64,000 nucleotides of DNA from an uncultured Candidatus Peribacteria bacterium (GTDB taxonomy: Bacteria; Patescibacteriota; Gracilibacteria; Peribacterales; Peribacteraceae): contig CAYSWB010000007.1 in assembly GCA_964434575.1 (NCBI GenBank), forward strand, positions 4,702 to 68,701, in the 5' to 3' direction. The translations under genes were made by a program, and so were the position numbers. Of the stretch, positions 25,832 to 60,900 are shown piece by piece. Below the pieces are notes generated by a model. The model did not search any database. It was not told the DNA's origin and worked only from the letters and a program-made list of their open reading frames with translations. The stretch's first letter is position 1; each line of letters starts with the position of its first letter.

Positions 25832-26060
25832 CGAAATTCCGCGCGCCAGTATACAGTCCCCGGCACGTCGGGCTCCTCAACGCGGCTTGCCAGCCATAAG
25901 GGAACACGTCGAACATCATGAAAAGAAAGCGTGACCTGATGCCGACAAACGGCCGTTTTGCCGTAGAGAAGCGCGAAGGCAGGCTCCGCCTGCCTGGAGC
26001 GCAACAAGCCGAAGGAGAGCCCGTGAGAGGAAACTGGCAAGTTTCCTTTCACGAGTTTCA

Positions 26061-26150
26061 TGGCGGAGAGGGGGAGATTCGAACTCCCGAGACGTTTTCA
26101 CGTCTACTCGCTTTCCAAGCGAGCGCACTAGGCCACTATGCGACCTCTCC
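26061..26150 (-). tRNA. tRNA-Ser (anticodon GGA), long variable arm, CCA encoded
   Basis: The reverse complement is GGAGAGG-T-CGCA..TGCG-CTCGC-TTGGAAA-GCGAG-[variable arm GACGTGAAAACGTC]-GGGAG-TTCGAATC-TCCCC-CTCTCC-G-CCA. Confidence 0.85.
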
Positions 26151-26223
26151 GTGGATAAGGCTGGCACGGCACGATGCCGTGGGAAGCCCAGGATACGCAG
26201 TTCATGCGCCGGAGACAACCCGC

Positions 26224-26484
26224 TTAGGCACAGACCTCGCAACCCTTGCCCATGCACTTGCCCATCTGGCGGCTCCAGCCCATCACGGAGGCCACGAAAG
26301 CGATGATGGCGAGGGAACCGGACGTGGAACCGAACTGGGCTCCGCCGGCCACGATATGCGTCTGGTAGATGCCGACCAGCGACGCGATCGTCACGAGCAG
26401 GAGCAGCAGGGCGACCGCCCACTTCATGATCACGCACGGGGTGGAGCACTGCGACTTGGACTTCTTGGAAGAGAGGAGACTCAT
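26224..26484 (-). CDS. small membrane protein with C-terminal CxxxxCxxC motif (86 aa)
   Basis: Third codon positions are almost all G/C by eye. There are two TM helices. The C-terminus is GKCMGKGCEVCA. An alternative start at MKWAV gives 67 aa. Confidence 0.6.
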   Translation of the reverse strand: MSLLSSKKSKSQCSTPCVIMKWAVALLLLLVTIASLVGIYQTHIVAGGAQFGSTSGSLAIIAFVASVMGWSRQMGKCMGKGCEVCA

Positions 26485-26625
26485 AAACGGGGGCAAGGAA
26501 AGAATGGAGGCACTATAGCATCGACCGCGCCTCCGCGCCGCTTCGCAGACAACAGAACGGTCGTGCGGGCAACGTGCGGCCATTCGGCTGGCCCGTCGGC
26601 CGTTTCCCGCGTAGGCTGTCCCCGC

Positions 26626-41446: not shown

Positions 41447-41546
41447 CACCCCATTGTACCATATTTCGCCCCTTGGATGAAGCCCAGAGCGGGCCGGGGC
41501 GCCATTCGGTTGCGCGGCGGATGGCCCCTGACTAGACTTGGCATCT

Positions 41547-44500
41547 ATGGCGAATCCGGGCTTCTCAAGCCGACCGATTTACGGTGACGAGCCATCCGAC
41601 GATAACCGCGGCGAAACTCCTTTGGACGAGCCGCGCAGCACCCCTCCCGAAGGAGGATTTCGCCGGAGTCCGCGCTTGCGCCAACGCGCCAGCTACCGCG
41701 GCGGGGGAACCCGTACGGCAAACGCGCTTGCCCGCGTGAAAGGCGTCGTCTTCAAGAAACGCACGAAAAAGGAGTGGAAGACGATCGCCGTCCGCACGGT
41801 GGCCGGCGGCGCGGCGGCGGCCGTGCTTGGCCTTGCCCTGCTGTGGATCACGCTGCCGAACATCGACGACCCGAGCACGCTGTTCGCGTCGCAAAGCACG
41901 GCCATCGTGGACCGCAACGGCGTGGAGCTGTACCGCCTGTTCTCCGAACAAGACCGCACGTACATCCCGGGGGCCGAGATCAGCAACAGCGTGAAACAGG
42001 CGACCATCGCCATCGAAGACGAACGCTTCTTCAGCCGCGGCAGCTGCTTCGACATCATCGGCTTCAGCCGCGCCGTGCTCAGCCAGGTGTTGCCCGGCGC
42101 GCTGGTGCGCTCCGGAGGCTCGACATTGACGCAGCAGTTCGCCGGCAACGCGCTGGTGGGCCGCGAGCGCTCGCTGCTGCGCAAAATCCGTGAGCTGATG
42201 CTCGCCTGCAAGCTGGAACAGAAATACGACAAAGACCAGCTGCTGGAGCTGTACCTGAACTGGATCCCCTACGGACCCACGTCGTACGGCATCGAGCAGG
42301 CCGCCCGCAACTACTTCGGCACCGGCGCCAACAGCATCACGCTGGCGCAGGCCGCCGCGCTGGCGTCCATCCCGCAGCGCCCGTCGTACTTCAGCCCGTA
42401 CGGCAAGAACGTCCGCACGCAGGTCAGCGACCAGATCCTGGAGCGCATCATCAGCGGCGAAATCACGACGACCGCGCAGATCCCCGACGCCGGCGTGCGC
42501 ATCGGACTCATCGGCCAGGAAGTGGGTTCTGGCGCGACGAAAGTGTACGTGGGAGGACGCGCCGACCAGGTGCTGAAGAACATGCTCGACCAGAAGATGA
42601 TCAGTGAGGAAGAGCACGCCAAGGCGGTGGAGGACCTGAAAAAAATGGAGTTCCGCCGCGAGCGCGAGAACATCCGCGCGCCGCACTTCGTACTGGCCGT
42701 TCAGAAGCAGGCCGAGGAGCTGCTGGGCATCGATGAAGCGCTGCTGCAGCAGGGCGGCTTCAAGATCACCACCACGCTGGATTGGAACCTGCAGCAGGTC
42801 GCCGAGAAGGTCGTCGCCGATCACGCCGAGGACGTGACAAACCGCTTCGGCGCGCGAAACTCCGCGCTGCTGTCGCTGTCCACCAAGACGCGCGAAGTGC
42901 TGGCGTACGTCGGCAACACGGATTTCTCCGATGAGGAACATGAAGGAAAGATCGACATGGTGCGCGCGCCGCGCCAGCCGGGCTCCAGCTTCAAGGCATT
43001 CACGTACCTGTCCGCGTTCGAACAGGGCTACGGCCCGGGCAGCGTGGTCTACGACCTGCCGACCAAGTTCGGCGTGGACGAACCGCAGAACTTCGACGGC
43101 GCGTTCTGGGGGCTCATGACGATGCGCTCGGCGCTCGGTTCGTCGCGCAACATCCCGGCCATTAAGGCGTTCTTCCTGGGCGGCGGCGAGGAGCCGCTGC
43201 TGTCGCTGGCCGCACGCATGGGCGTGACGACTCCGACCACGCAGAAAGCCGAGTTCCGCAAAAACACCCCGGACTACGACTATGGATGGCCGCTGTCGAT
43301 CGGCGCCGCCGAAGTGCCGCTGTGGGAAATGACCCAGGGGTACGCGACCATCGCCGACGGCGGCAAATTCCTGCCGCCGGTCACGATCCTGAAGATCACC
43401 GACAGTTCCGGCAACATTCGCTACCAGCACAAGCCGGAAGCGCCCCAGGAGGTGGTGGACGCGCGCGTCGCCGCCATGGTGACGTCCGCGCTCAGCGACG
43501 TGTCCGTGCGTCCCAACGAATATTGGCAGACCGTGCTCTCGGTGCCCGGCATCCAGGCCGCCGCCAAGACCGGCACCAGCAACAAGTGTCTGGAGCGTGA
43601 CGCGAGCGGAGGCTGTACGCTGCGCCGCCCGGAAAGCACCTGGACCATGGGCTACACCCCGAGCCTCGTGACCGGCGTATGGGTGGGCAACGCCACCAGC
43701 CAATCGCTGTTCGACAAAGCCGACGGTCTCACGACCGCCGCGCCCATCTGGCACGAGTACATGATCGGCGCGCATCGCAAACTGACCGGCGTGACGACGT
43801 CGTTCACGATGCCGCCGAACATCACGCAGCCGCTGCTGTCCAAGCTCTCCGGCCAGCTGGCCAACGCCTGCACGCCGGTGGAACTGCGCAAATCCGATCT
43901 CTCGCTCGAGGAACGCACGCCGACCGCCGAGGATAGCGCCTGCGTCCTGCTGAAGGTGGATAAAGTCACGGGATTGCTGGCCTCCCCGGCCTGCCCGGCA
44001 GACGCCGTGGAGGAACGCGCGTTCTTCGTGCCCGAGAGCGAGCAGCCCACCCGCTGGCCGTTGTGGGAACAGGCGGTGCAGGAATGGGGCAAGAAGGAAA
44101 TGGAGAAGTGGAACGCCAACGAGACGCACTCCGGCTCCACGCTGCCGCTCCCCCTCCCGCCGACCGCCGAGTGCGACCCGGCGCTGACCCCCGGCCGTCT
44201 GGAGAAGCCCAGCGTGCAGCTCATCATCCCGTCGGGCGGATCGTCCGTGCCGTACCCGTCGTTCACGCCCAAGGCGAACATCGTGTCGCGCGGCAAGCTG
44301 AAGGAGGTGAAGTACTTCGTGGACGACAAGCAGGTCGCCGTATTCACCGAAGCCCCGTTCAACGGCCCCGTGCGCGTCCCCCGCTCCATCCTGGAGGAAG
44401 GCCAGCACAACATGAAGGTCGTCGTGACCGACGAGTACTTCAACACCGCCGAGGACACCTCCAGCTTCGTGTTCGAAGAGGACACCGGGCGCCCGCGCGT

Positions 44501-44762
44501 GCGGTTCGTGCCGGACAACGACGAACTGACCATGCCTGCCGGCAGCGAGATCGTGCTGACGGTGGATGCCACCGACGACGGCGGCATCGAGCGCGTGGAG
44601 TTCTTCATGGACGGACAACTGCTGACCGTGAAGCGCACCGCGCCGTACCAGCTGCAATACACGCTGAAGGAATCCGTGGGCGACCACGTCATCCGCGCGG
44701 TGGCGCGCGACACGGCCGGCAACGAAGGTTCGGCCGAGCTGACGCTGACGATCGGGTTCTAG
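41547..44762 (+). CDS. class A penicillin-binding protein with C-terminal Ig-like domains (1071 aa)
   Basis: IEDERFF, GGSTLTQQF, RKIRE, GSSFKAF, SSRN and KTGTS motifs. The C-terminal 230 aa or so contain two Ig-like repeats (YFVDDKQV...H.MKVVVTD and FFMDGQLL...HVIRAVARDTAGNEG). Confidence 0.85.
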   Translation: MANPGFSSRPIYGDEPSDDNRGETPLDEPRSTPPEGGFRRSPRLRQRASYRGGGTRTANALARVKGVVFKKRTKKEWKTIAVRTVAGGAAAAVLGLALLWITLPNIDDPSTLFASQSTAIVDRNGVELYRLFSEQDRTYIPGAEISNSVKQATIAIEDERFFSRGSCFDIIGFSRAVLSQVLPGALVRSGGSTLTQQFAGNALVGRERSLLRKIRELMLACKLEQKYDKDQLLELYLNWIPYGPTSYGIEQAARNYFGTGANSITLAQAAALASIPQRPSYFSPYGKNVRTQVSDQILERIISGEITTTAQIPDAGVRIGLIGQEVGSGATKVYVGGRADQVLKNMLDQKMISEEEHAKAVEDLKKMEFRRERENIRAPHFVLAVQKQAEELLGIDEALLQQGGFKITTTLDWNLQQVAEKVVADHAEDVTNRFGARNSALLSLSTKTREVLAYVGNTDFSDEEHEGKIDMVRAPRQPGSSFKAFTYLSAFEQGYGPGSVVYDLPTKFGVDEPQNFDGAFWGLMTMRSALGSSRNIPAIKAFFLGGGEEPLLSLAARMGVTTPTTQKAEFRKNTPDYDYGWPLSIGAAEVPLWEMTQGYATIADGGKFLPPVTILKITDSSGNIRYQHKPEAPQEVVDARVAAMVTSALSDVSVRPNEYWQTVLSVPGIQAAAKTGTSNKCLERDASGGCTLRRPESTWTMGYTPSLVTGVWVGNATSQSLFDKADGLTTAAPIWHEYMIGAHRKLTGVTTSFTMPPNITQPLLSKLSGQLANACTPVELRKSDLSLEERTPTAEDSACVLLKVDKVTGLLASPACPADAVEERAFFVPESEQPTRWPLWEQAVQEWGKKEMEKWNANETHSGSTLPLPLPPTAECDPALTPGRLEKPSVQLIIPSGGSSVPYPSFTPKANIVSRGKLKEVKYFVDDKQVAVFTEAPFNGPVRVPRSILEEGQHNMKVVVTDEYFNTAEDTSSFVFEEDTGRPRVRFVPDNDELTMPAGSEIVLTVDATDDGGIERVEFFMDGQLLTVKRTAPYQLQYTLKESVGDHVIRAVARDTAGNEGSAELTLTIGF

Positions 44763-46737: not shown

Positions 46738-47484
46738 CTAACCCTGAACTCTCGCATTCGTATGGATTTCCGACACATCATCATCTTCTTCCAGGATGGC
46801 GATGAGCGCGTCGATCTTCTGCATGGTGGCGGCATCCACGTCGGCGTGCTGCTTGGGGACGAACTGCAATCCGGCGGATTCGATGTTCATGCCCTTCGTC
46901 TTCAGGAAATCGCGTACTTTTGGCCAACCGGCGACGTCGGTGACCACCTGCAGATGCGCGCCGTCGGACGAAAAATCCTCGGCGCCGTGATCGATGAGTT
47001 CCAACTCCAGGTTCTCCAGCGCAGCGGCGTCCGGAAACGCGCCGCCTTCGGGGGCGCCCGCCACCACCACTCCCTTGCGGTCGAACATCCACATGACGGA
47101 GCCGTTGCTGGCGAACCGTCCGCCATTTTTATCCAGCAGCATCTTCACGTTGGAGAGCGTGCGGTTCTTGTTGTCGGTGAGCGTCTCCAGAATCAGCGCG
47201 GCGCCGCCCGGACCGTACGCCTCGTAGACCGTTTCCTGCATCGCCTCCCCTTTCAGGGCGCCGGTACCTTTGGCAATGGCGCGGTCGATGTTGGCGTTCG
47301 GCACGCTTTCGGCTTTGGCAGAATCGATGAGCGAGCGCAAACGGACGTTCGACGAAGGATCGCCGCCGCCCTCACGCGACGCGATTTCGATCAGGCGGGC
47401 GTACTTGGTGTACACCTTGCCGCGCTTGGCGTCCTGCGCGCCTTTGCGAACCCGGATATTTGCCCACTTTGAATGGCCGGACAT
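46738..47484 (-). CDS. YebC/PmpR family DNA-binding regulator (248 aa)
   Basis: MSGHSKWANIRVRKGAQDAKRGKVYTK is the hallmark N-terminus. TGcTACAAT lies 6 nt upstream of the ATG. Confidence 0.9.
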   Translation of the reverse strand: MSGHSKWANIRVRKGAQDAKRGKVYTKYARLIEIASREGGGDPSSNVRLRSLIDSAKAESVPNANIDRAIAKGTGALKGEAMQETVYEAYGPGGAALILETLTDNKNRTLSNVKMLLDKNGGRFASNGSVMWMFDRKGVVVAGAPEGGAFPDAAALENLELELIDHGAEDFSSDGAHLQVVTDVAGWPKVRDFLKTKGMNIESAGLQFVPKQHADVDAATMQKIDALIAILEEDDDVSEIHTNARVQG

Positions 47485-47508
47485 GACCGGATTGTAGCAC
47501 GGGCATTC

Positions 47509-48135
47509 TTAGCCGGTCGTTTCATCGGTCAGGGACGTCATCAGGCGCAGGTACCTTACGCATGCGGCCGCAGAAATGCCGGCGGGCAACGGCAGATCGT
47601 CCTGCGGCGGGAGAGCTTCCAGTGCATTGAGCGTCAGCTCATGGATACTGGTTGCTGGTTGGTCACCACGGCGATACGGCACGAACGCCGAGCGAGCCAG
47701 AAAATCCTCTTCGGTCTCGATAACAAGTTTGCTCTCGCCGGTAGGAGGAGCCCCGTCTATGACAACGCGCTGACCCTCCCGGCCCACCGCTGTCCAGTAA
47801 TGATACGGCATTACGGTTTCTGTACCGGTTGCTGGACGGGGCAACGCGTACACCGACGCAATGGGTACTGGGAGTTCCAGCTTGCGCACGGCGTGCCGCA
47901 CCGCACTCATACTGAAGCCACACGAACCGCTCTTCGGCGCCTTGCTGGCAGGCTTATAAATATCACGTCGCCACACTGCTGCGATTTCAGCGTTGAAGGT
48001 CGTGCGAAGTGCCGTCAGCGCACGCAAAAAGCGTGCTTCTTTTGGCTCTAAATGATTCCTCAAGACCCGCAATAAATCTGCCTGTGAAAAGCTGCCACAA
48101 TCAAGCGTACTGCGCTGGGGTGCGGGGCACGTCAT
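47509..48135 (-). CDS. paralog A of a conserved-Cys/His/Asp protein, predicted papain-like (transglutaminase/NAT-type) fold (208 aa)
   Basis: By eye it is roughly 40% identical to the 56866-57495 product. Shared blocks are FSQA(D/E)LLR, G(S/G)CGF, LPVP, YH(Y/F)W.AVG...QRV.IDGA.P, F.PYRRG.QP and LTDE. Spacings are Cys-40-His-15-Asp. Confidence 0.7.
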   Translation of the reverse strand: MTCPAPQRSTLDCGSFSQADLLRVLRNHLEPKEARFLRALTALRTTFNAEIAAVWRRDIYKPASKAPKSGSCGFSMSAVRHAVRKLELPVPIASVYALPRPATGTETVMPYHYWTAVGREGQRVVIDGAPPTGESKLVIETEEDFLARSAFVPYRRGDQPATSIHELTLNALEALPPQDDLPLPAGISAAACVRYLRLMTSLTDETTG

Positions 48136-48142
48136 ATATTAT

Positions 48143-48170
48143 ATTATAAAATATATTTTATAAATAGCAA
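48143..48170 (-). promoter_or_regulatory. leaderless-type promoter of paralog A
   Basis: On the minus strand: TTGCTA (48170-48165), 16 nt, TATAAT (48148-48143), 7 nt, ATG(48135). It lies within a roughly 45-nt tract of almost pure A/T. Confidence 0.5.
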
Positions 48171-48251
48171 GTATCAATAAATCGCTTTTGGGCGCCATCC
48201 ACGCGCCAGGCGGTTAACGACCCCGAGGGAATACAGGGAGTGGTTGTGTGC

Positions 48252-48521
48252 TTACACTTTCTGGAACTGCATGCCGAGCACGTCGCCTTTCGCATCGGCG
48301 GTCACGGTCGCCCCCAGAAAACCGAAGTTGTGAACAAGCAGCATCCGGTAGGTGCCGATGGCGCCATCAACGGCATCCAGCGAAGCGGTATCAGCGCTGA
48401 CCTCGGCCGTGACGGCTACGGAATTGAATGTCGTCCGGCAAAACTCCGTGCCGGCTTTGGCAATGGAGTCGCCATGGAGCGCGAGGAGGTCTTTGGCAGA
48501 TGGCGGCAAGGAAGGCTTCAT
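48252..48521 (-). CDS. small hypothetical protein (89 aa) immediately downstream of the giant protease gene
   Basis: Third codon positions are mostly G/C by eye. The ATG at 48521 is 12 nt after the giant gene's stop (a TTG at 48527 is also in frame). The sequence looks beta-rich, and I recognise no family. Confidence 0.55.
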   Translation of the reverse strand: MKPSLPPSAKDLLALHGDSIAKAGTEFCRTTFNSVAVTAEVSADTASLDAVDGAIGTYRMLLVHNFGFLGATVTADAKGDVLGMQFQKV

Positions 48522-48533
48522 GGGCAAGTGGGA

Positions 48534-51500
48534 TTATTTCAAAAGGCGGCGCATGTCGACCGTCACGTAGCTGATGTCCGAGAAGGTTTCCAGGAAGGCG
48601 TTGTACCGCAGCGTGATGGGCTTGGATGTATCGTGCGGGTTTACGACGGTCACGGTCTTGGCGACGTTATCCACCGATTCGATGGAATACGCATGGGTAA
48701 AGTGAATGCGCACGTCGTTGCCCTGAACGTCTTTGACCGTGTACGTGAAGGTATCGTTGCGCAAGCGCGGCGTATTTGCCGTGGCGAAGTGCTTTTCCAC
48801 CGAGAAGGAGTTCAGGAAATCCAGCGCTTTCTGCTTTGAGTGAATCTCACCCTGGCTGATGGGACGGGCGTTTGCCGCGTCGCCGACGATATGGCCGGCT
48901 TCTCCGCTGTCAAAACCAAGCAGGCGTTGGATGGCCTCATGACCCAGGCCGCCGGTCGACGCCTTGCGGTTCACTTGCCCTCTTCCGTCGCGGCCATGCA
49001 CGGAAAGGGTATACGCCGCCTCCAGTACTTGGAAACCCACCGGCCCGTTCAGGCCGAAATACGCATGCGCGACCGTATGCTGGGCGAGTTGCAGGTCTCC
49101 GTCGTTCACCCGGACGATTTTCGAGCCCGGACCGCCGCCGAGCGGCACGCGAACGTCGTACCCCACCGTGAACTTCTGGCGGATGGTGCGCCCCCTGTTG
49201 TTGGGATCCGGCACGTCGAGCTCCTCGATGATCGGCGTAACGGCGGACCGCACGAGGATTTCAAAATGCGGCGACTGGCGCAGCGAGTGCAGCGAGGCGA
49301 CCAGGTAGCAGTTCCCCACGTTCTGCTGGGAAAAATCGCTGTCCGGAGGGAAGAGGTGCTGGAATGTCGACCGGTTGAGCGGCAGCTTTCCACCCTCGAG
49401 CAGATCCAGTTTTTTGCGGAAAAACTCGCTTTCCGGTGCCTCGCGCAGGGCCGGAATGCGCTCGCGCAGATCCTGCGGGCTGAACATGCGTTCCGCATCG
49501 TACGGAAGCGTGCGCCGCGTGGTGGGGTTGTATGCCTCCAGCTGACCGGAAGCCGTCCGGCGCACGATCCAGCCTTGTTCCAAGCTCGCGGGCGACGTGG
49601 ATGTTTTTGGGGTGAGCAGCAGTATCGCCTCGCCGTTTCGCGGAACGCGCCGCAACGCGGGGGCCACATAGCCGGTCTCGATGTAGGCGTTTTCGTCATT
49701 CAGGGGCAAAAGAATGTTCTTCAGGTCTTTGTACGGGACTCTGCTGATTCGAATCCGCGGAGAATCCGGATCGTAATGCACCGTCACCTTGCCGTCGGGG
49801 CCCATGGACGAGATCAAGACCGTGTCGCCCTTCGCATCCTGCGCCGCCGTGCCGATGGGAGGAACGACGAGTCGCTCTCCAGGCTTCAATCCGGTGTTGC
49901 GCTGCCAATCGCGCACGAGTTGGAGATCGATCCGGTAGAGAACGCCTGACGCATCTTTCACGATCGCAATATTGGGCTGGGCGGGGTCCACGGAGTCCAG
50001 CTTCAGTTCTTGCTGCGTTCCATCGACATTCGGGCGGATGATGAGCGTCTGCCCCGGCTTTACCTGTATGCCGTTGATGTCCACCGCGCCCGGCACGGCC
50101 TCCCGCACCGGCTGCACACGGCCGTTGGCGTCCAGCTGCGCGACATCCAGATGGAAATTCCGGTACTCGGTCTTGCCGTCCACAACGCGCTTGAACCGGC
50201 CCTTGGGCCTTCCTCCGCTGCCGTCTTCGGCGGGGCAGACGTACCGCCATTCTTCCACGGCACCGCCGCTGCGGCGCATGCGGTACAGGTTGTCTTGGAC
50301 GAAGTCCGAATGGTCCGGCAGCGCATCGGCCAGCGGCAGCGGATCGTCCGGCGGCGCGCGGCGCACTTTGCTGATGGGGAATCCTGAAGGATCTTCGTTC
50401 GTATCGACGCTGGTGAATTTGGGCGCGCCGCCGATGTCGCCGCCCACGTATTTCCAGCGCTCCACTTTGCCACTGCTTCGCGTGATCAAGTACACGGTAC
50501 CCTCGCGCAAGTCGGTCAGCGCCAACGGCGCTTCCGGCGCGGCCGGCTGTTCCTTGAACAACAGACGGCCGGCGATGACCTGGTCGCGCGTAAACCTTGC
50601 CCTTTCTCCGGTGCGGGTGTTTTTCATCAGGAGATCGCCCTTCTCATCGATGTCACCATCGAACGTGTAGACGGCGTCGCCGATCCGGACTTCCCTGCCG
50701 AGAACCACGTCCTGCTCCGCCCGGCGCTCCTGCTTCGAGAGCTTCTTGGGGGCGGCTGCGGGGTTCGCCTCGGCTTGTATGGCAACCTTCGCGGCGGCAA
50801 TGGCCTCGGCGATGGGTATGCGGCGCTGTTCGCCGTCGCTCTTGCGCTTCATGACATACGTGTCGGGCTCATTCCTGCTGAGGCGGACGTAGACGTACGT
50901 TTCGCCGCGAATCTCCACCGGCAACCCCGCCGCGATGCGCTTGGCGGCGGCATCGTCCGTGACCGATCCCGGAGCAGCGTCCGGGCTGCTTGGCGCAGCC
51001 AGGGCCGCGCGCGCCGCGTCCACCACTTCGGCCTGCGTGAACGTTTTCACAAGACCCGTCTTGGTGTCCTCCATCGCGAACTTCCCCCTGCTCGGCTCCC
51101 CGGCGAAGACGTATTCACGTCCATCGATCTTCACCTTCAGTCCCTGCTCCAACTTTGTAAGCACCGTGAGTTCCGGAATGTCTTTGCCGGCGGCAGGCGG
51201 CCGCACTTCGTCGTACCCCACCTCGGCATGCACGGCGTCGTAGACTTTGGATTTCGACACGTACACTTCCACTTGCGTGGTTGTATTGCGCATGACAAAC
51301 GAGTCCGGTTGGCTGGAGCTCTCGCGCACGAACACGAACGTCCCGGTCGCGTTCGGAAGCGCCAGCGTCACCGTTCCGCCCCTCCTGAGATAGTCGCTCA
51401 CGAATGCGTTCCCTCCGTCTCTTGGCGCCGCATAGTTTTTGTCGCCCACGATTTCATTGAGCGAGAGGGAGGCCTCGGCGCGCACGCCGTTCACGTCCAA

Positions 51501-54500
51501 CGAGAACACGTACTTGCCGTCCTGCACGCGCACGAACGTGGCGACTCGCAGCTTTCCGGCCGGCGTGCGAATGGTGTATTCCTGGCCGGGAACGATCCTG
51601 CGGGCATCGAAGGCATCACTCCTGCCGCACACGGCAGCGTCCAGGAGCAGCTGCGCATTGGCCCTGCCGAATACCGGCAGCAGAATGCGCGCCTTGCCGA
51701 ACATCTGTGCCCCGGTGAGATTATCGATCACGCCGGGGGCATTGTGCGCATCGAGCAGCGCCTTGCGCTCGGTATCGTTGAGCGTGCGTCCGATGAGCGC
51801 TTCGGCGATGAGCACGCGTGTCGCGTCGTCGACGTCGTTCTGAATCAGGAACTCCTTCAGCGCGGCCATTTGGCCGGGGTCGGCCTTCGCGGCGGCAGCC
51901 AGCTTGACGCCTTCGGCGCGCGTTTCGGGCCGGGTTTCTGGCGTCACGCTGGCCCCGGCGGTATCCGGAACCAGGACGATCGTACGGCCGTCGAGCTCCA
52001 CCGTGATCGTGCCGCTTACGTCGACGCTGACATTGCCGCCTTCCATGGTCGCCCATGCGACGACATCCGCCACGGCTTTCGTGGGATCGCCATTGGTCTG
52101 GTACTCGAACGTGGGCATCACGCGCGCCTGGGGATTGCCGGGCGTCTTGGGCTTGAAGTTCTGCCCCGCGATGATGAACAGGACCGACCAGTCTCCGACC
52201 ACGTCCTGCATTTTCTCTTCACCGACTTCCTGGGCGGTTTCCAGCACCCAGCTGCGCAGGAATTGCTTGGTGGTCACGCCTTTCGTCGCCTGCTGCTCGA
52301 TCTTGCCGAAGTACGTGAAAATGCGGTTCACCACGGGCGAGCGCGTCGCGAGGCCCTGCATGATCTTGGAATTGGCGAGCAGGGTCAGGCTCTTGCCGAT
52401 GACCGCTCCGGCTCCGGCGAAAGCAAGCGACGTGGCGAACTGCTCGGCGAACTGCTGGGCCAGCGGCTCGATGAAATGCTTCAGCGCGTCGACATGCTCC
52501 TCTCGACCCGTTTCCGGATTGAAGATTTTTTCGTCTTTGATCACGGCGCGGGCGAAGGCGCCGGTGCGGGACCTTGCGCGGTACGTCACTTTGCCGCTGC
52601 GGACATCCTCGTCGAATTCCTGATGCAGCTGGAAGCGCGCCTCGCTCACGACCTCGGACGTGAGCACGCCGGCGGTGGCCGAAATGGCCGCGATGGCGAG
52701 AGGAGACGTGATGCCAAGCGTGAAGACCGACACGACGATGGCGAGCACCACGATGGCGACCGTGATGATGAGCACGATGTTCTCCTCGAGCCACGTCCAG
52801 AACGTGCTGACGTCATACGAGGATTTGTCGACGATGTTGGCGCAGAACACCTCCAGGTCGGGCTTGCTGAGCATGGCCTCCAGGTCTTCCAGCGCCTTGA
52901 TGCGTTTGTCGATCTCCTGATCCAGCGCGGTCTTGTCCACTCCGGTGTTCACGCGGCGCAATTCCTGCAACCGGCCTTTCGCTTTGTTCACGTTGGTGCG
53001 CAGCGTGGGGTCGCGCAGCACGCCCAGCACGCTCGTCGCCTCCTGGCGCATCAGGTCGACCAGACTCTGCCGCCTGGTGCCGTCCTTGCCTGCTTCGAAC
53101 AGGCTCTGCATCAGGTTCAGCGAGCCTTGGATCTTGCCCGCGTCCGCAGTGATGCCGCGCACGGCCGGATCGGAATCGATGACGCGCAACACGTCGCGGG
53201 AGTCTTCCACGTTGCGCTTTTCCACGTCGTCAACCGATGCGAACCGGATGTTCCTGGCCGTGACGAACACGCTGTACGACGCCAGTTTGTTTTCGGGTTC
53301 GCTCGGGTTCGGCTCGCCCACCACCTGCAGCGCCGACCGGCCGTTCATGCCGCCTTCGATGCCGGACAATTGTTGATTGATTGTATTGATGGCGACGCGC
53401 CCGCCATCCGGGGGCGTGGAGTACCGCACGTCGACGCCGTGCAAGCCGCGGTTGGAACCCAAAACGTTCCTCGGATCGTCGAAGTTCTTGCCGTCGCGTT
53501 CCGTTTCGCGGCAGAGCCAGACGCCGTCGGTGCTCGAGAATACGTACTCCACCGTCAGTCCGCCGCTCTTCACGCGTACCCGGGTGTCGAAATCGATCGG
53601 CGAATCGGTCCGGTCCCAGTTCCGCTGGATGGATACTTCGCCGCCGCTTTTGGTCAGCACCTCCAGACCGCGGCGTTCCACTTCGCGCATTTCTTCCACG
53701 CTGCGCCCGATGCGCACGAACGCCAGGTCATCGGCCTTCAGCGTGTCGAACGTGGTGACAAGCTGTTGGTAGCGCGGCGGCGTGCGCAGGTCGTTGCTGG
53801 GCACGCGGATCACGTTGCCGAACGTCGGCTTCGACGGCTGGCGGCGCAACACGGCGGTGAAGCCTCGCGGGGCACCCCCCAGCTTCATGATGAAACTCTC
53901 GTCAAACGCGACCAGGTGCTCTTTGCCCTGGACGCCGACCTTGTACAGCGGCGTCCCGCGGAACCCGATGGTCCGGCTGGTGGTCAGCTCAACCGGCACG
54001 CTCTGGCCCTCGTACCGGCCCGAGTACGAGTCGTACTCCGCGACCGTGAACGACGTATCGGCGAACTGCCGGCGCTCGAACAACTCGCGGTTGTCGGCCG
54101 CCTGGTAGCTGCCGAGTTCCGGGCCGGCCTCGCGCGCCTCGCGGCGCCGGCGGACTTCCGGGTCGCTGCGTTCCACGAGACCGCGGCAGATGGCATTGAG
54201 CGCCTTGCGCTCGCCTTCCGGAATGGCCGGGTCGGTGAACCAATTGCCGTCCGGGTACCCGACGCGATACGACGGCTTTTCTTGGTTGAAGTGCCATTCG
54301 CCGCCAATGCCGCACGAGAACGTGCCTTTCACCGTCGCGGTCTCCACGGAATACAGAGCGAAAAAGTCATTGGCGCCGTCACCGACGCGCTTGACCGTCA
54401 CGCCGTTCTGGCCGTTCTGCGACAGCAGGAATTCCTTGGCCTGCTTGGTGAATTTCTCGCGCGGATTCTCGAAGTCTTCCGCATTGAACGGCAGCCTGCC

Positions 54501-56456
54501 GCCGCCTTTGCCGCGCAACACGACGCCTCCGCCGAAATCGACGGGGGCGGAATCGCCCTGTACCCGGATCGGCGCAAAGCGGCCGTTGCTGCGCAGCAGG
54601 TTCAGGTCCACCGAACGGCGCAGCCCGCGGGCTTGGGCGAGCAAATCGGAGTCGCGGTTGCCGGCCTGGCGGTCCACCGCCAGTTTGGTCGCGTCCTGGT
54701 CGCGGCCCTCGGCCATCGCCAGCTCCACCGGCGTCAGCTGGTTGCGCGCCTTCAGGCCGCCGATCGCCTCGGCGACGCGCTTGCCGAGATCGGGGTCCAT
54801 GCGGGCGATATCCGCGCCGTACTTCTCCCGGATTTTCAGGTAGAAACGGTCGCTCTCTTGCTGCCGGCCTTCGTTCTTCGCGACGGTGGCGTCGAAGATC
54901 GTAAGCGCGGCCTCGAAGTGGAACATGATCTGCTGCAGTCCGGCGATGACCTGTTGTTCTTTTTGGATGGTTTCGCGCGCGGAGCGGATGTTCTTCACCA
55001 GGCGTTCGACCTTCGCCTTGTCGGCGTCTTTGCGTGTTTCATCGGCGAGGTTCTTGGTTTCGTTCTGGATGAACGTCTGTGTGCTTTCGATGTTGCGCTG
55101 CGGCTCCAGCGTGCGGTCGAGCACGAATTCGTACTTGCGGCGGATGAGGTCCTCCGGTTTACCCAGCAGGTACGCGTGCGTCACACTTACGGCCTGCGTG
55201 GGCGTCGGTTGCGGGGGCAGCACGCCGCGGCCCAGCTGCGTCGCGAGCTGCCGCATGTCCACGGGCGGGCGGAACGGAAAGCCGCTGGATTCGCAGATGG
55301 CGGGACTCAGCTTGTTGACCAGCGACACGCGCGACACGACCAAGCGCAGCGTGGTCTCGCCGTACCGCTCCGTCGCCGTCTTCACGTATTCCTCCATGGT
55401 TTTGGGGTCGAGCGGCGAGTCCGTGGTGAGCTGCTCGAACAGCTGCCGCACGGTGGTCTTCGGCGCGTCCGCCCCAAGCTCGGCCTGCTCGCCCCGCAGT
55501 CTGGCGTACTCGGTGCGGTAGCCCGGGAGCGCGTCTTCGATCGCTTTGATGCGCGCGGAAATGAGCTCGCCGGACTTGTCGTTCAGCATCCCCTGGTTCG
55601 GATACCGGGCCAGGTGGACGCGCTCTTCTTCGTTGGCGTCGATGAGCAGCTCCAGGGTTTCCACGACTCTCTGCGCGACGACCGGCGACGCGGACCTGGC
55701 GGTGTTGAACGTGATCCACGCCTGGTCGGAGCGGTCGCGCAGCGCCTGCATGGTGGCCTGGTCCCTCGGTAACGCGGCCAGCACGTCGTTGCGCTCTTTG
55801 CGGTAGCCGACAAGCGCGGCCTCGATGGCCGCACAGCGCTGCTGGACGGTGCCGCCCATGACGGCGTCGTTCCAGTCGGGCGGCTTCACGCCATCGCGCA
55901 GGTACGCCAGTTCGGCCTCGTTGGCGCGGATGACTTCGTCGCAGGCGCTGGCATGCGCCAGGCCGCCGACCTTGCGCGCGTTGACCAGCGTCACGTTGTA
56001 CGCGTCGTCCGAACGCTTGCGCAGCTGCTGGAAGCTGACGGGCCCGGCGGCATACCGGCGCACCTCGCGGACATCCTCGGGCCGCAACGATTCCAGGAAC
56101 CGGTCGATCGAGGCGCTGAATTCGGGGATGCCGGAATCCAGGTTGTCGTCATTCACGTTCACCAGCCGCCCCGCCAATCCGCCCTCCGCATCGTTGCAGG
56201 CCTTCTCCAGCGCGGGCCAGTTCGGGTTGCGCATGTCTTTGCCGATTTCCACGTGCAACCTGAGCTGGCGGATGCGCGCCTGGAGCTCGTTCACGCGGTT
56301 GATGTACGTCTTGGTGCGCTCGGCGATCTGCTCTTCGGTCGCGCCGCCGCGGCCTTCGACCTTGCCGTCGGCTTTGTTATCCAACCTGTCGAGCCTTTGC
56401 TGCTGACGCTGGATGTTGGTTTCATTCGATGCCGACTCCGGTCCGGGAGGCATCAT
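48534..56456 (-). CDS. giant protein (2640 aa): helical N-region, beta-rich modules, central TM segments, about 10 small beta-rich repeats, C-terminal calpain-like cysteine protease
   Basis: A single uninterrupted ORF with protein-like composition throughout. The N-terminus is hydrophilic with no signal peptide. There is a hydrophobic stretch at aa 1226-1270. The C-terminal motifs are QQNVGNCYLVASLHSL, FTHAYSI and VVNPHD. Confidence 0.85.
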   Translation of the reverse strand: MMPPGPESASNETNIQRQQQRLDRLDNKADGKVEGRGGATEEQIAERTKTYINRVNELQARIRQLRLHVEIGKDMRNPNWPALEKACNDAEGGLAGRLVNVNDDNLDSGIPEFSASIDRFLESLRPEDVREVRRYAAGPVSFQQLRKRSDDAYNVTLVNARKVGGLAHASACDEVIRANEAELAYLRDGVKPPDWNDAVMGGTVQQRCAAIEAALVGYRKERNDVLAALPRDQATMQALRDRSDQAWITFNTARSASPVVAQRVVETLELLIDANEEERVHLARYPNQGMLNDKSGELISARIKAIEDALPGYRTEYARLRGEQAELGADAPKTTVRQLFEQLTTDSPLDPKTMEEYVKTATERYGETTLRLVVSRVSLVNKLSPAICESSGFPFRPPVDMRQLATQLGRGVLPPQPTPTQAVSVTHAYLLGKPEDLIRRKYEFVLDRTLEPQRNIESTQTFIQNETKNLADETRKDADKAKVERLVKNIRSARETIQKEQQVIAGLQQIMFHFEAALTIFDATVAKNEGRQQESDRFYLKIREKYGADIARMDPDLGKRVAEAIGGLKARNQLTPVELAMAEGRDQDATKLAVDRQAGNRDSDLLAQARGLRRSVDLNLLRSNGRFAPIRVQGDSAPVDFGGGVVLRGKGGGRLPFNAEDFENPREKFTKQAKEFLLSQNGQNGVTVKRVGDGANDFFALYSVETATVKGTFSCGIGGEWHFNQEKPSYRVGYPDGNWFTDPAIPEGERKALNAICRGLVERSDPEVRRRREAREAGPELGSYQAADNRELFERRQFADTSFTVAEYDSYSGRYEGQSVPVELTTSRTIGFRGTPLYKVGVQGKEHLVAFDESFIMKLGGAPRGFTAVLRRQPSKPTFGNVIRVPSNDLRTPPRYQQLVTTFDTLKADDLAFVRIGRSVEEMREVERRGLEVLTKSGGEVSIQRNWDRTDSPIDFDTRVRVKSGGLTVEYVFSSTDGVWLCRETERDGKNFDDPRNVLGSNRGLHGVDVRYSTPPDGGRVAINTINQQLSGIEGGMNGRSALQVVGEPNPSEPENKLASYSVFVTARNIRFASVDDVEKRNVEDSRDVLRVIDSDPAVRGITADAGKIQGSLNLMQSLFEAGKDGTRRQSLVDLMRQEATSVLGVLRDPTLRTNVNKAKGRLQELRRVNTGVDKTALDQEIDKRIKALEDLEAMLSKPDLEVFCANIVDKSSYDVSTFWTWLEENIVLIITVAIVVLAIVVSVFTLGITSPLAIAAISATAGVLTSEVVSEARFQLHQEFDEDVRSGKVTYRARSRTGAFARAVIKDEKIFNPETGREEHVDALKHFIEPLAQQFAEQFATSLAFAGAGAVIGKSLTLLANSKIMQGLATRSPVVNRIFTYFGKIEQQATKGVTTKQFLRSWVLETAQEVGEEKMQDVVGDWSVLFIIAGQNFKPKTPGNPQARVMPTFEYQTNGDPTKAVADVVAWATMEGGNVSVDVSGTITVELDGRTIVLVPDTAGASVTPETRPETRAEGVKLAAAAKADPGQMAALKEFLIQNDVDDATRVLIAEALIGRTLNDTERKALLDAHNAPGVIDNLTGAQMFGKARILLPVFGRANAQLLLDAAVCGRSDAFDARRIVPGQEYTIRTPAGKLRVATFVRVQDGKYVFSLDVNGVRAEASLSLNEIVGDKNYAAPRDGGNAFVSDYLRRGGTVTLALPNATGTFVFVRESSSQPDSFVMRNTTTQVEVYVSKSKVYDAVHAEVGYDEVRPPAAGKDIPELTVLTKLEQGLKVKIDGREYVFAGEPSRGKFAMEDTKTGLVKTFTQAEVVDAARAALAAPSSPDAAPGSVTDDAAAKRIAAGLPVEIRGETYVYVRLSRNEPDTYVMKRKSDGEQRRIPIAEAIAAAKVAIQAEANPAAAPKKLSKQERRAEQDVVLGREVRIGDAVYTFDGDIDEKGDLLMKNTRTGERARFTRDQVIAGRLLFKEQPAAPEAPLALTDLREGTVYLITRSSGKVERWKYVGGDIGGAPKFTSVDTNEDPSGFPISKVRRAPPDDPLPLADALPDHSDFVQDNLYRMRRSGGAVEEWRYVCPAEDGSGGRPKGRFKRVVDGKTEYRNFHLDVAQLDANGRVQPVREAVPGAVDINGIQVKPGQTLIIRPNVDGTQQELKLDSVDPAQPNIAIVKDASGVLYRIDLQLVRDWQRNTGLKPGERLVVPPIGTAAQDAKGDTVLISSMGPDGKVTVHYDPDSPRIRISRVPYKDLKNILLPLNDENAYIETGYVAPALRRVPRNGEAILLLTPKTSTSPASLEQGWIVRRTASGQLEAYNPTTRRTLPYDAERMFSPQDLRERIPALREAPESEFFRKKLDLLEGGKLPLNRSTFQHLFPPDSDFSQQNVGNCYLVASLHSLRQSPHFEILVRSAVTPIIEELDVPDPNNRGRTIRQKFTVGYDVRVPLGGGPGSKIVRVNDGDLQLAQHTVAHAYFGLNGPVGFQVLEAAYTLSVHGRDGRGQVNRKASTGGLGHEAIQRLLGFDSGEAGHIVGDAANARPISQGEIHSKQKALDFLNSFSVEKHFATANTPRLRNDTFTYTVKDVQGNDVRIHFTHAYSIESVDNVAKTVTVVNPHDTSKPITLRYNAFLETFSDISYVTVDMRRLLK
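48537..49394 (-). other. calpain-like (peptidase C2-type) catalytic domain of the giant protein (aa ~2355-2640)
   Basis: HLFPPDSDFSQQNVGNCYLVASLHSL (Cys2383, codon 49308-49310), HFTHAYSIESV (His2588, 48693-48695) and VTVVNPHD (Asn2606, 48639-48641). The order and local contexts mirror the calpain motifs QG.LGDCW.LAA, GHAYS and RNPWG. Confidence 0.65.
49467..51596 (-). repeat. about 10 tandem 50-60 aa beta-rich modules (coding repeats, aa ~1621-2330)
   Basis: The recurring pattern G..(Y/V).(F/V)......(D/G).(F/Y/L).M/V........(F/I)....V is separated by Pro/Ala-rich linkers. Examples are GREYVFAGEPSRGKFAMEDTKTGLVKTFTQAEVVDA, GETYVYVRLSRNEPDTYVMKRKSDGEQRRIPIAEAI and GDAVYTFDGDIDEKGDLLMKNTRTGERARFTRDQVI. 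Confidence 0.55.
52647..52781 (-). other. central hydrophobic (TM) segments of the giant protein (aa 1226-1270)
   Basis: NIVLIITVAIVVLAIVVSVFTL and SPLAIAAISATAGVLTSEVV. A third weaker hydrophobic stretch lies at aa 1341-1361. Confidence 0.6.
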
Positions 56457-56782
56457 GCGGCGTCGAAGAAATGCTTGAGCTGTTCGTCTTCATCGGCCTT
56501 TTCAAACGGCTCCTCGGCCTTGCTCAGCTGGCTCGCGGCGGCGGCGAACAAGCTATCCAATTGCACAAAGAACGCCGTATCGTTGCGCTTGGAAGCGGCG
56601 TCGATGGTCGCCGCCATCGCCTTCTGCACGACGGCGGGCTCACCCTCCAGGATGGCGCGCAGACGCGCCGCCTGTTCCGCGTTCAGCGACGGCAGCGCGC
56701 GCAGCAGCGCCTGTCGCTGCTTGGGCTTCAGCAGCCGCGACGATTCCACCAGTGTGTTGAGTGTTGGTTTTTGGGCCGACAT
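56453..56782 (-). CDS. small helical protein (109 aa) translationally coupled to the giant gene
   Basis: ATG at 56782 (an in-frame TTG lies at 56836). Its TGA overlaps the giant gene's ATG as ATGA (56453-56456). TGgTATACT (-10 at 56793-56798) lies 10 nt upstream. Confidence 0.6.
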   Translation of the reverse strand: MSAQKPTLNTLVESSRLLKPKQRQALLRALPSLNAEQAARLRAILEGEPAVVQKAMAATIDAASKRNDTAFFVQLDSLFAAAASQLSKAEEPFEKADEDEQLKHFFDAA

Positions 56783-57495: not shown

Positions 57496-57501
57496 ATATA
57501 T

Positions 57502-57529
57502 ACCATACAATATTTTATAATATATGCAA
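57502..57529 (-). promoter_or_regulatory. leaderless-type promoter of paralog B
   Basis: On the minus strand: TTGCAT (57529-57524), 16 nt, TATGGT (57507-57502), 6 nt, ATG(57495). Confidence 0.5.
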
Positions 57530-57612
57530 TATCGACAGTGATCCGCGTCGTGTCCCGGGACTTCTGAAACAACCGTTTTTCTGCTATGATTGTATGAAAA
57601 TCCAACATCCAC

Positions 57613-57915
57613 ATGACTCTCGACGATTTCATTGCCCGCGCGAAAACTTGGACGCTGTTTCCCGCCGATATTTTGGAGGCGGCCGTGAACGACGCGTTTT
57701 TCCTAGTCTTTGACGAGCGCGCCGTGCTTGCCGCAAAGCTCGACAGCATCCATACGGCATGCCGGCGAATCGATGCCGAACGCTTCCGGCGCTTCGCGGC
57801 GGCCGAGCAAGCGTTGGACGACATCCGCCGCGCGACGCTCCCCGTCGTCTATGCGGCGGTCGAACAGAGCGAGAGGGACCAGGCGTTGGACGACATCACC
57901 AAGCAATTCGAATGA
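57613..57915 (+). CDS. small helical protein (100 aa) translationally coupled to the 1513-aa gene
   Basis: ATG start at 57613. Its TGA overlaps the next ATG as ATGA (57912-57915). Composition is helical. Confidence 0.6.
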   Translation: MTLDDFIARAKTWTLFPADILEAAVNDAFFLVFDERAVLAAKLDSIHTACRRIDAERFRRFAAAEQALDDIRRATLPVVYAAVEQSERDQALDDITKQFE

Positions 57916-60900
57916 CGCTCTTCTCCGAGCACCGGCTCCTTCATCTCGCGGGCGGCGAAGGCCCCAGCGGCGATGTCGAGCGGAAGGAAAAAGCCGTGAA
58001 ATCCGCTTCCGCCAGCGAACCGGTCGAACCGGGGCGCGAAGGGTTTGAGAAGGACACGAAAGAAGTCGGCGCAATGCTGCTGAAGGCCGACCCGACCGGC
58101 AAAAAAGTGGAGAAGCCCCTGAAGGAGCTGACGGCGACGCGTGAAAAAGTCCTGAAGGAAGACGACAACCTGCAAAAAGAAAAAAAGGTTGAGATCGAAG
58201 GCGCCCGCAAGGTCGTGGACGAGTCTAGGCCACGGTCTGCGGAACGTCCGACCATCCCCGCCGACGCCTCGGTGCTGCCCGAAGACGTGAACATCCGCGA
58301 CAGCCGTCTGAACGGCTACCAGCTCCGCACCATCGGCGGCGTCATCATCGCCGCGAAACCCGGCAATCCGCAGATCTTCTCGGTCGAACCGGGTATCGGC
58401 GCGACGGTGACGCTCACCGAACTCGTCGGCAACACGAAGCAGCGCTTCGCGATCCTGCTGACGTTCGTCGGCAACCAGCGCTTGGTGGACGGAGCATCGC
58501 TCCCGGGCGCTGAGACGGCGTACAACTACGGCCGGCGCGGCGATTCCCTTATTCGCTACGCGAAGAACGGAGCGGAAACGCTGGTCGTGAACCCGCAGTT
58601 CGACGACAACTGGCGTCCGCTGTACCAGCAAGTCGTGGAAATGCAGGAGAACGTCGGCAGCAGCGCGTTGCAGCAGGGAGGCTACCGCCAGGAAGGCGAC
58701 GGTACGTGGAAGAAGGCGGGATCGCCGTGGCAGTTCCGCGCCGACGGCACGGGCCGCTGGCTGGTCCGCAACGGCACGGGGCCACTCATGCCCGTCGAAA
58801 CCACCAACGTCGCGCCGGAAGACCCCGAACTGGGCGTGTTCCAGAACCTGGGCGCTGCACTGCGCATCACCAACGAGGGCGTGCAGGCGCGCCTGAACAG
58901 CGACAACGCTCAATCCATCAAGCGCGAAGGCGCCGTGCAGATCCTCAAACTCGGTGCAAAGCCGTATGACGGCGAAGGCGGCGGCTGGGAGTACAGCACC
59001 GGCTTCAGCGTGAACGTGAACCCCCAATTTCAATTCGTCGGCGGCCGCTGGGCCGTCCGCTGGTTCACATCCGAAGCATGGAGCGACCCCGGCTCGCGCC
59101 GCGCGGCATCGGGAGGCGGTGAAGAGGCGATCAACAACATCCTGTCGTATCTGGCCGGACTGAACGAACGCATCGGACGCGGCGTGCCGCTCACGTTCGC
59201 GCGCCCGCCGGAACAGAGGCCGGTGACCGTCGCCCCGCTGGTGCCCAAGGCCCAACAGGAAGCGGCTGCGCAACCCGACCCGACCGAGGGTATGACCGAG
59301 GAACAGAAGGATGCGTATAAGGAAAGCATCATCAAGCAGTTCGTCGAAAAAGAGCAGCAAACCGGCGTTGCCGCGGAGGCGTACGACAAGAGCAAGAACA
59401 CCAAAGACCTGCTCTCCGTGATCAGCAGCATGCAAGGCGAGCTGGAATTTTTGCGCCAGAACAGCAAGTTGATGGATAAGGAGGCTCCGGCGGCCAAAAC
59501 CGCATTCGAGCGACTGCTGCAGCGTCGCACACAGACATTGGAAGCCGCGCTGAAGCAGCTGGAACCAGTGGTTCGTGACCTGGCACAACGCTCCGAAGCA
59601 GGCATCCGCCGCGCACGCGCCAAAATCATGGAAGTCATCGGCCGCGAGCGGCAGCAGATCATCAACGCCTACGAGCAGCGCGCCGCCGGCGGCACGTTCG
59701 GCTCGTTGAAAACCGGCCTCACCGGCTCGGACCCGTATGCGCTCTTGATCACGGATGCCGAAATGACGATCTCGCGCATGAACCTGTCGCTGGACCGCCT
59801 GAACAAAGCCGACGCCGAGCCCGAAGGTCTCGCGAAACTGCGGGCCGTGCAATCGGCGCTCAGCAGCATCGCCATCGCCAACCGTAGCGACGCCGCATTC
59901 TACCAGGAAGTCTTCGCCATCGAGCAGGAAGCCATCACCGTCACGCGTGACGTTACCATCGCGGTCATCACGACGGTGGTGCCCATCGGCGCCGGCGCGG
60001 TATTCAGCGGGCTGAAAACAACCGCCGCGGTGGCCAACACCGCCAATGCCGCCAAAACGCCTCTCTTGGTCGTGTTCCGCCAGGGCGCCGTGGAAGGCGC
60101 TACGCTTGCGGCCCCCGGCGCGGTCGGCAAGGGTGTGGATGACGTCCAACGCGGCGCCAAGACCGTGAAACAGGCCATCGTCGACGGCACCATCGAGGTC
60201 GGCGTGGGTGCGGGATTGGGCGGCGGACTGAAGACCGGATTCACCGCCGGCGGACGTGGCATCAGCGCTCTGCGCGGCAACAAGCCGGCACCCGGCGTCG
60301 AACCCGTGCCGGGCGGCGCCCCAGAGCCCATTCCGGTCGTGAAGCCCAAAGTCGGACCAGACGGTATTCCGTTCGTGAAACCCAAGCCCATCGGTGCAGA
60401 TGGCATTCCGGTCGTGAAGCCCAAACCCATCGGCACCGACGGCATTCCGGTGGTCAGGCCGAAACCGAAGATCGGACCGGACGGTATCCCCATCGTGAAA
60501 CCCAAGCCCGCCACGAGTGCGCCAAAGGCAACGCCGGAACCGCCGGCGCCGAAACCGACCACGCGCCTGGTCGGCAAAGCGGACCTGCCGAAGGTAACCG
60601 TCAACCAGCTCAACAAGCGCTACACGGAAATCGTTTCCGGTACCGCCAAGAACGTGCAAAAAAACGAACTCGCCACGCTGCGCGCCGAATTCGCCCGCCG
60701 CGGCATCGCGCCGCCGACCGTGAAGAGCGGCCCAGTGCAGGTAAACCCTCTGCCCGACGCCATCGGCCCCACGCCCGCCACGAACCTCTTGCCGGCTGCC
60801 GGCCGCCCACTGCGCGACACCACGCTCCGCACCGCCACCGATGCGCGCGTCATTGCGCGCTACCAGGCGCTTGTCGGCCGCCGCGCCGCGCCGCGTCCCG

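Follow-up and report, generated by a model that had tools for sequence, protein, structure and literature searches.

Two paralogous proteins with a putative papain-like Cys-His-Asp triad, members of a narrowly restricted family, in a variable chromosomal island of Peribacteraceae

The papain-like core consists of a helix with a cysteine at its N-terminus, followed by an antiparallel sheet of four to five strands, with a histidine on β2 and a polar residue on β3 (PMC10318531). Published Cys-His-Asp triads of this type are those of SseI (C178/H216/D231, spaced by 38 and 15 residues) and of the Pasteurella multocida toxin, PMT (C1165/H1205/D1220, spaced by 40 and 15 residues; PMC3498931). Here we report on two genes from a 64-kb stretch of DNA of an uncultured Peribacteraceae bacterium (contig CAYSWB010000007.1; the whole stretch is hereafter referred to as the window). 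Paralog A (P0001; 47509-48135, minus strand) encodes a protein of 208 amino acids (aa) with the putative triad Cys72/His112/Asp127, and paralog B (P0002; 56866-57495, minus strand) a protein of 209 aa with Cys73/His114/Asp129. We consider it reasonably probable, from conservation and structure prediction, that the two represent a tiny family of ~208-aa cytoplasmic proteins, whose core would hold a papain-like Cys-His-Asp triad and which would act as substrate-specific modifying enzymes encoded in self-contained cassettes.

The window is chromosomal DNA with 63% G+C and encodes PheT, two class-A penicillin-binding proteins (PBPs), VanW, a SufS-like protein, ribosomal proteins S6 and S18, and YebC. 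Peribacteria have small genomes, and striking large proteins have been reported from them (PMC4736985). The YebC of the window shares 70% identity with its counterpart in a Candidatus Peribacteraceae metagenome-assembled genome (Peregrinibacteria, candidate phyla radiation (CPR)), with the next genome match at 46%.

A and B are both coded on the minus strand, the plus-strand translation being full of stops, and an earlier sequence-only reading had placed the two open reading frames (ORFs) correctly. Its estimate of roughly 40% identity along the full length agrees with the BLASTP result (84/209 identical residues, or 40%, end to end, E 3e-45), which is far beyond chance; by this alignment, A and B are paralogs. 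All blocks it quoted, namely G(S/G)CGF, YH(Y/F)W.AVG...QRV.IDGA and F.PYRRG.QP, were found in the pair. The proposed spacing of 40 and 15 residues is exact for A, but B reads 41/15, and the third member of the family, described below, 42/15. The conserved Cys73 is the sole cysteine of B. The ORF of B extends upstream to a GTG at 57612; the ATG at 57495 was preferred as the start, because it is aligned with the N-termini of A and of the third member, is located just after a promoter-like site and was chosen in two independent assemblies, both with a 209-aa call. No signal peptide or transmembrane (TM) segment was detected in A or B, with maximum 19-residue hydropathy values of 1.1-1.5 (1.09 in A), and therefore both proteins should be soluble and cytoplasmic. 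The G+C content at third codon positions in A (0.61) and B (0.67) is the lowest at the locus, where other genes range from 0.73 to 0.99.

The family was searched for in 1.84 billion representative proteins, 5.8 billion clusters, GTDB genomes, JGI metagenomes and IMG/VR. A word-indexed search of the 5.8 billion clusters with A as the only query returned A itself. An exhaustive search of the 1.84 billion representatives with a profile hidden Markov model (HMM) built from A and B yielded three proteins: A, B and P0003 (206 aa, E 3.5e-34), the latter encoded on a 24-kb contig of a sister genome (L001). The indexed search, repeated with the three-sequence profile, added nothing, and all three proteins are singletons. 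Scans of GTDB species genomes, JGI metagenomes and IMG/VR produced no further family loci, and relatives beyond the reach of HMMER may exist; a lenient HMM scan of all ORFs of 80 YebC-anchored loci detected no hidden homologs. As far as public data show, the family is nearly orphan and lineage-restricted, occurring in two closely related Peribacteraceae populations.

The three-way alignment of A, B and P0003 has 45 invariant columns. Cys72, His112 and Asp127 (numbering of A) are invariant in all three members, with spacing of 40-42/15, despite ~1.2 substitutions per site; the sequence-only reading had made its enzyme proposal dependent on the conservation of these residues in wider homologs, and P0003, the only one found, retains them. 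Conservation is densest in the blocks G.CG[FY] around Cys72, YH[YF]W.AVG around His112 and V..DGA.P around Asp127. The core, residues 66-131, has 20 of its 66 positions invariant, against 25 of 142 in the remainder. The blocks proposed for the pair thus survive in part: those containing Cys, His and Asp are kept in P0003, but PYRRG.QP is not, the corresponding stretch reading PYIVEDD. His165 and Asp204/Glu205 are also invariant in the three members, and the conserved features outside of the core comprise a long N-terminal helix and an acidic C-terminal tail (LTDEDT).

A phylogeny of the copies, suggested earlier as a check, could be built with these three sequences and took the form of a star (Kimura branch lengths of 0.63 for A, 0.54 for B and 0.71 for P0003), so that the duplication leading to A and B would be about as old as the split of the two genomes. 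By this tree, A and B are old, strongly diverged copies. The family evolves much faster than the neighbouring housekeeping genes.

The fold was approached by structure prediction. AlphaFold2 (AF2) on the three-sequence alignment gave a model of A with a mean predicted local distance difference test score (pLDDT) of 74.7, a predicted template-modelling score of 0.75 and values of 84-91 in the core. Its DSSP elements are a long N-terminal helix (18-58), a helix at 71-84, strands at 92-99, 112-117, 124-127, 138-141 and 151-153, and two more helices. In this predicted model, Cys72 is located at the N-terminus of helix 71-84, His112 is the first residue of the second strand and Asp127 the last of the third, and the predicted order of elements agrees with the published papain-like core, an agreement that concerns the order only and not the 43215 arrangement of strands in space. 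Foldseek against PDB placed the SseI catalytic domain at ranks 1-3 (prob 0.51-0.72) and PMT at ranks 5-6. In our own classification, 39 of the 50 top rows belong to the papain-like superfamily, known as SCOP d.3.1 and Pfam clan Peptidase_CA, and represent ~11 families, and seven rows are clearly unrelated; other superfamily matches include USP28, arylamine N-acetyltransferase (NAT), GdmF, the transglutaminase (TGase) 4xz7, the transglutaminase-like protease 3isr, LapG, staphopains, phytochelatin synthase, vasohibins (VASH1/2) and H-REV107. The family profile was also aligned by hhalign with SseI, the sequence of which was taken from the Gifsy-2 record: the best local alignment puts His112/Asp127 on His216/Asp231 of SseI, and the extended one additionally puts G-x-Cys72 on G-x-Cys178, collinearly. 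Thus, several independent weak indicators, none of them significant alone, agree on a papain-like assignment, which we regard as rather probable.

If so, the segment ~66-155 would adopt a papain-like or transglutaminase-like α+β fold, in which Cys72, His112 and Asp127 would form a catalytic triad. His112 would activate the thiolate of Cys72, with Asp127 orienting the histidine, and the thiol would attack an amide or thioester carbonyl to give an acyl-enzyme. The latter could be resolved by water, as in a protease or a glutamine deamidase, or by an amine, as in a transamidase or an acyltransferase. The triad spacing and the best structural neighbours point to a modifying enzyme of the SseI/PMT-C3 type, rather than to a general protease. 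SseI and the C3 domain of PMT deamidate specific protein substrates, and NATs act as acyltransferases; hence, general proteolysis would be less likely than action on a narrow protein or small-molecule substrate.

A number of observations weigh against this assignment. A, B, P0003 and their core segments had no match in Pfam, NCBIfam, PADLOC or PHROGs even at permissive thresholds, with only noise returned (e.g., CAF1-p150), and searches of PDB by sequence and profile with the family yielded nothing relevant. The Pfam models PF01841, PF00797, PF15645 and PF06035 did not match any of the three proteins or their cores, Tox-PLDMTX (PF15645) not even at E <= 10. The best Foldseek match against PDB has E 0.13, with none <= 0.001, prob reaching 0.72 at most and TM-scores of 0.26-0.39, and the hhalign comparison with SseI is not significant (P 0.2-0.26). 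The structural model depends on three sequences, the two-sequence alignment having given an unusable pLDDT of 38.6. Furthermore, the triad was a post hoc choice among the 45 invariant columns, and a conserved Gln/Asn that could form the oxyanion hole is not apparent N-terminal to the Cys. The analysis provided no substrate evidence, the candidate substrates named below being suggested by gene context. The core of the papain, transglutaminase or NAT type seen by the sequence-only reading finds moderate support in the invariant triad, the order of AF2 elements and the composition of the Foldseek list, in which the superfamily dominates, but in no individually significant structural or profile match. 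Foldseek against BFVD gave no meaningful match, and a regex search of the retrieved loci for reference TGase, NAT and NlpC/P60 proteins, from which hhalign profiles could be made, returned no candidates.

These negative results would follow if the proteins were not papain-like at all, the likeness being an artefact of an AlphaFold model with a shallow alignment and of a common C...H...D pattern; Cys72, His112, Asp127 and His165 could then bind a metal in a lineage-specific fold. Every fold and profile match stays below significance, sequence-family matches are missing, and the AF2 model is unstable with respect to alignment depth, all of which this explanation would accommodate, while the second invariant histidine, His165, together with Asp204/Glu205, would suit a metal site. 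Chance, however, hardly explains why ~39 of the 50 best PDB matches, from ~11 families, fall into one superfamily, or why the helix and strand positions of Cys, His and Asp fit the canonical topology, and we consider a fold outside of the superfamily unlikely.

The genomic setting of the family is a variable island between rpsR and yebC. Along the minus strand, the order in the window is HTTM, S6, S18, then p1513 and p100 on the opposite strand, B, p109, a giant gene, p89, A, YebC, an ABC transporter and, again on the opposite strand, a PBP1 gene. The island is bounded by rpsR, which encodes S18 (62514-62756, minus), and by yebC (46738-47484, minus; Pfam TACO1/YebC), whose product is 85% identical to that of the sister genome and 70% to that of a more distant Peribacteraceae genome (L002), used as a comparator for this interval. 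In 14.2 kb of the contig L001 that were compared with the window, YebC, S6 and S18 are 85% identical to their counterparts, the ABC transporter 70%, PBP1 69% and HTTM 59%; on account of these identities, L001 is considered to be a sister genome. It has the order HTTM, S6, S18, P0003, a pair of opposite-strand genes for proteins of 1192 and 101 aa, YebC and the ABC transporter. The 101-aa protein is the ortholog of p100 (41%) and the 1192-aa protein that of p1513 (46-51%). Counterparts of the giant protein, p109 and p89 are missing from the compared 14.2 kb. In L002, the genes for S18 and YebC follow each other at a distance of 186 nt, with no gene in between. With no genes in L002, three in L001 and seven in the window, the rpsR-yebC interval is a variable island.

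Within the island, the p100/p1513 pair is the only neighbour of the family common to both genomes, and the gene for the 2640-aa giant protein is not. The position of the family relative to this pair differs between the window and L001, and a single inversion would not account for the difference. A and B do bracket the giant gene (48534-56456, minus) together with its two small companions, as was noticed from the sequence. A duplication linked to the giant gene is nevertheless not supported, as the sister genome has one family copy and no homolog of the 2640-aa protein in the compared 14.2 kb, and as A and B have separate promoter-like sites. Likewise, the suggested check of whether relatives keep one copy on each side of a giant gene turned out negative in L001, which has a single copy and, in the compared part, no such gene. 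The link of A and B to the giant gene is weak, and no finding connects the copies with it in function.

The two genes appear to be transcribed on their own. A stretch of AT-rich DNA, ~50 nt long, precedes each of them. Upstream of A, a promoter-like site (48136-48180, minus) reads TTGCTA-16-TATAAT and ends 7 nt before the ATG, which is of the leaderless type; the site of B, read by eye (57496-57540, minus), is TTGCAT-16-TATGGT, followed by 6 nt and the ATG. P0003 has a similar promoter arrangement. The 9-mer ATAAAATAT occurs upstream of A (within 48146-48161), B (57510-57518) and P0003 (L001 3588-3596); in the 64-kb window, it was found only upstream of A and B (three matches, 0.01 expected), and in L001 only upstream of P0003. 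Upstream of A, it forms the 16-bp palindrome ATAAAATATATTTTAT (48146-48161). It is possible that this 9-mer represents an operator or promoter element common to the three genes and carried along with them. A promoter-like site with an extended -10 is also present before p109 (56821-56793, minus), and -10 boxes lie 6-10 nt before the ATGs of A (promoter-like stretch 48143-48180, minus), B, p109 and yebC (the latter at 47485-47500, minus), with no Shine-Dalgarno sequence visible. As such boxes are close to the ATGs of p109 and yebC as well, leaderless starts look like a general trait of the genome, and leaderless mRNAs may be common in this Peribacteraceae bacterium. It is likely that A, B and the giant operon are transcribed separately. 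A single operon B-p109-giant-p89-A-yebC was considered and rejected, since the starts of A, B, p109 and yebC are each closely preceded by a promoter-like site.

In L001, P0003 lies between two hairpin terminators. P0003, with its promoter and terminator, is flanked by a ~100-nt direct repeat of the 3' end of rpsR (3354-3453 and 4401-4498, with 88% and 78% identity), and the downstream copy is a pseudo-fragment of rpsR. This suggests that P0003 arrived or moved by a Campbell-type or homology-mediated insertion. In the window, no repeats flanking the giant gene and no S18 fragments near A or B were found.

The partners common to both genomes are a small protein and a large membrane protein. The gene for p100 (57613-57915, plus) is divergent from B and translationally coupled (ATGA) to that for p1513 (57912-62453, plus), which has a TM segment around residue 680 and, in its C-terminal half, Pro-rich repetitive sequence. 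Its ortholog in L001 (4583-8158, minus) has in common with it the N-terminal ~800 aa, including the TM region, at 46-51% identity, and the C-termini differ: p1513 ends in Pro-rich tandem repeats (e.g., 61374-61509 and 61494-61629, 92% identical as DNA) and the 1192-aa protein in a DnaJ J-domain (E 3.8e-13). A scan of JGI metagenomes with an alignment of the two yielded no match. An indexed protein search with an in-frame fragment from the N-terminal region of p1513 (58272-60290, plus) also yielded none, the parent included, though it is present on public contigs, which probably reflects a limit of the candidate filter and not absence.

This setting gives some room to a second alternative, a papain-like fold without enzymatic activity. 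The family members would then serve as pseudoenzymes, adaptors or chaperones and bind to the large membrane proteins encoded nearby or to DnaK-type machinery, and the conserved residues would have a structural role. The family co-occurs with the p100 and p1513/1192-aa pair in both genomes and is missing where the pair is missing, the partner in L001 carries the J-domain, and the long conserved N-terminal helix and the acidic LTDEDT tail look like interaction elements. The co-occurrence, on the other hand, comes from two genomes, in which the gene order relative to the pair differs, and a full Cys-His-Asp triad kept at ~35-40% identity, with conservation peaking around it, is what would be expected of an active enzyme. 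We consider a non-enzymatic role distinctly unlikely.

The giant protein itself has 2640 aa, no signal peptide and TM segments at ~1219-1256. The stop codon of p109 (56453-56782, minus; a small helical protein of 109 aa, also called in other assemblies) overlaps its start (ATGA), and p89 (48252-48521, minus), a small ORF with an 89-aa call in three assemblies, lies directly downstream. Neither p109 nor p89 had matches in family libraries, and no domain like the A/B family was found in the giant protein or p1513. Gene calls made independently on contigs of three further read sets reproduce the models of 1513, 100, 209, 109, 2640 and 89 aa in unchanged arrangement. The C-terminal 320 aa of the giant protein (48537-49496, minus) contain a calpain-like Cys/His/Asn motif, QQNVGNCYLVASL ... 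FTHAYSI ... VVNPHD (QQNVGNCY...THAYS...VVNPH), and match Pfam Peptidase_C2 with E 0.0038 and 16.8 bits, short of the cutoff of 23.8 bits. The layout of a calpain-like end with p89 directly after it recalls polymorphic toxin/immunity pairs. That the locus is polymorphic-toxin-like, with a protease toxin domain at the end of the giant protein and A, B, p89 and p109 as immunity or accessory parts, or with A and B as SseI/PMT-like toxins themselves, is very improbable: this motif with its adjacent small ORF, and the membership of the two top structural neighbours, SseI and PMT, in the Pfam toxin family Tox-PLDMTX, would fit, but in the compared part of L001 P0003 forms a single cistron between the two terminators, with a giant toxin gene and an adjacent small partner both missing, A and B have no secretion signals and no PADLOC matches, and the usual immunity slot directly downstream of the giant gene is taken by p89, not by A.

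Two further observations concern the rest of the window. A tRNA gene (26064-26150, minus) lies inside the 5' part of the PheT ORF (25918-29004, plus), whose tRNA_bind domain does not begin before residue 282; pheT itself probably starts well inside this ORF rather than at its first ATG, with the length of 1028 aa being an artefact of ORF extension. The two class-A PBPs (16601-18679 and 41538-44762, both plus) are 44% identical over ~690 aa, the second having C-terminal Big_7/BiPBP_C domains.

Returning to substrate-specific modifying enzymes as the preferred explanation of A and B, our guess as to the substrate would be the cytoplasmic parts of p1513 and its 1192-aa ortholog, or of the giant protein. 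If the assignment is true, A, B and P0003 would add an unannotated and extremely narrow family to the papain-like/transglutaminase superfamily, with its closest relatives in structure among bacterial toxins that alter one residue in the protein they target. Many large proteins of CPR bacteria have no assigned function, and a dedicated thiol enzyme inherited together with a large-protein module would provide a concrete handle on them. A more far-reaching scenario, which we consider quite improbable, would have a new cassette-borne class of SseI/PMT-like enzymes in CPR (deamidase, transamidase or site-specific protease) that matures or regulates the cytoplasmic parts of p1513 and of the 2640-aa calpain-domain protein, two giant membrane proteins inherited along with it. 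Captured by homologous recombination at an rpsR-yebC hotspot, this class would move between Peribacteraceae genomes and take its palindromic leaderless promoter with it. With three sequences and no significant match, the finding is mainly a well-delimited annotation gap that would not surprise a specialist, though useful for annotation and as a lead into the giant proteins of CPR bacteria, and most likely represents a new tiny family of a very well-known superfamily.

Among known systems, the transglutaminase-core, BTLCP (LapG) and vasohibin proteins (PF01841, PF06035) follow the same motif logic, with G-x-C where a helix begins, H-x-W within a strand and Asp ~15 residues on. Their Foldseek TM-scores against the family are low (0.15-0.28) and none gave a Pfam match; moreover, LapG/BTLCP proteins are periplasmic and have signal peptides, whereas A and B have neither a signal peptide nor a hydrophobic N-terminus.

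NAT and GdmF (Acetyltransf_2, PF00797) are cytoplasmic Cys-His-Asp enzymes of the same superfamily and make up ~17 of the 50 top Foldseek rows, with NAT at E 0.4-3. The triad spacing of NATs is ~39/15 in the Salmonella and human enzymes. NATs are, however, larger (~270-290 aa) and consist of three domains, including a third α/β lid, whereas the family members have 206-209 aa, no lid and no PF00797 match, and their motifs around His and Asp, YH[YF]W.AVG and DGA, differ from those of NAT.

The closest likeness is to SseI and PMT-C3, papain-like glutamine deamidases of Tox-PLDMTX. These are C-terminal domains of secreted toxins or of effectors of type III secretion systems, whereas A and B stand alone as cytoplasmic proteins in a CPR bacterium, have their own long N-terminal helix and acidic C-terminal tail, and show no significant sequence or profile similarity to them. 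In common with the family, SseI and PMT-C3 have a similar domain size, ~170-190 aa, and the same Cys-His-Asp order, with the spacing of 40-42/15 in A, B and P0003 standing next to 38/15 and 40/15 in the two toxins.
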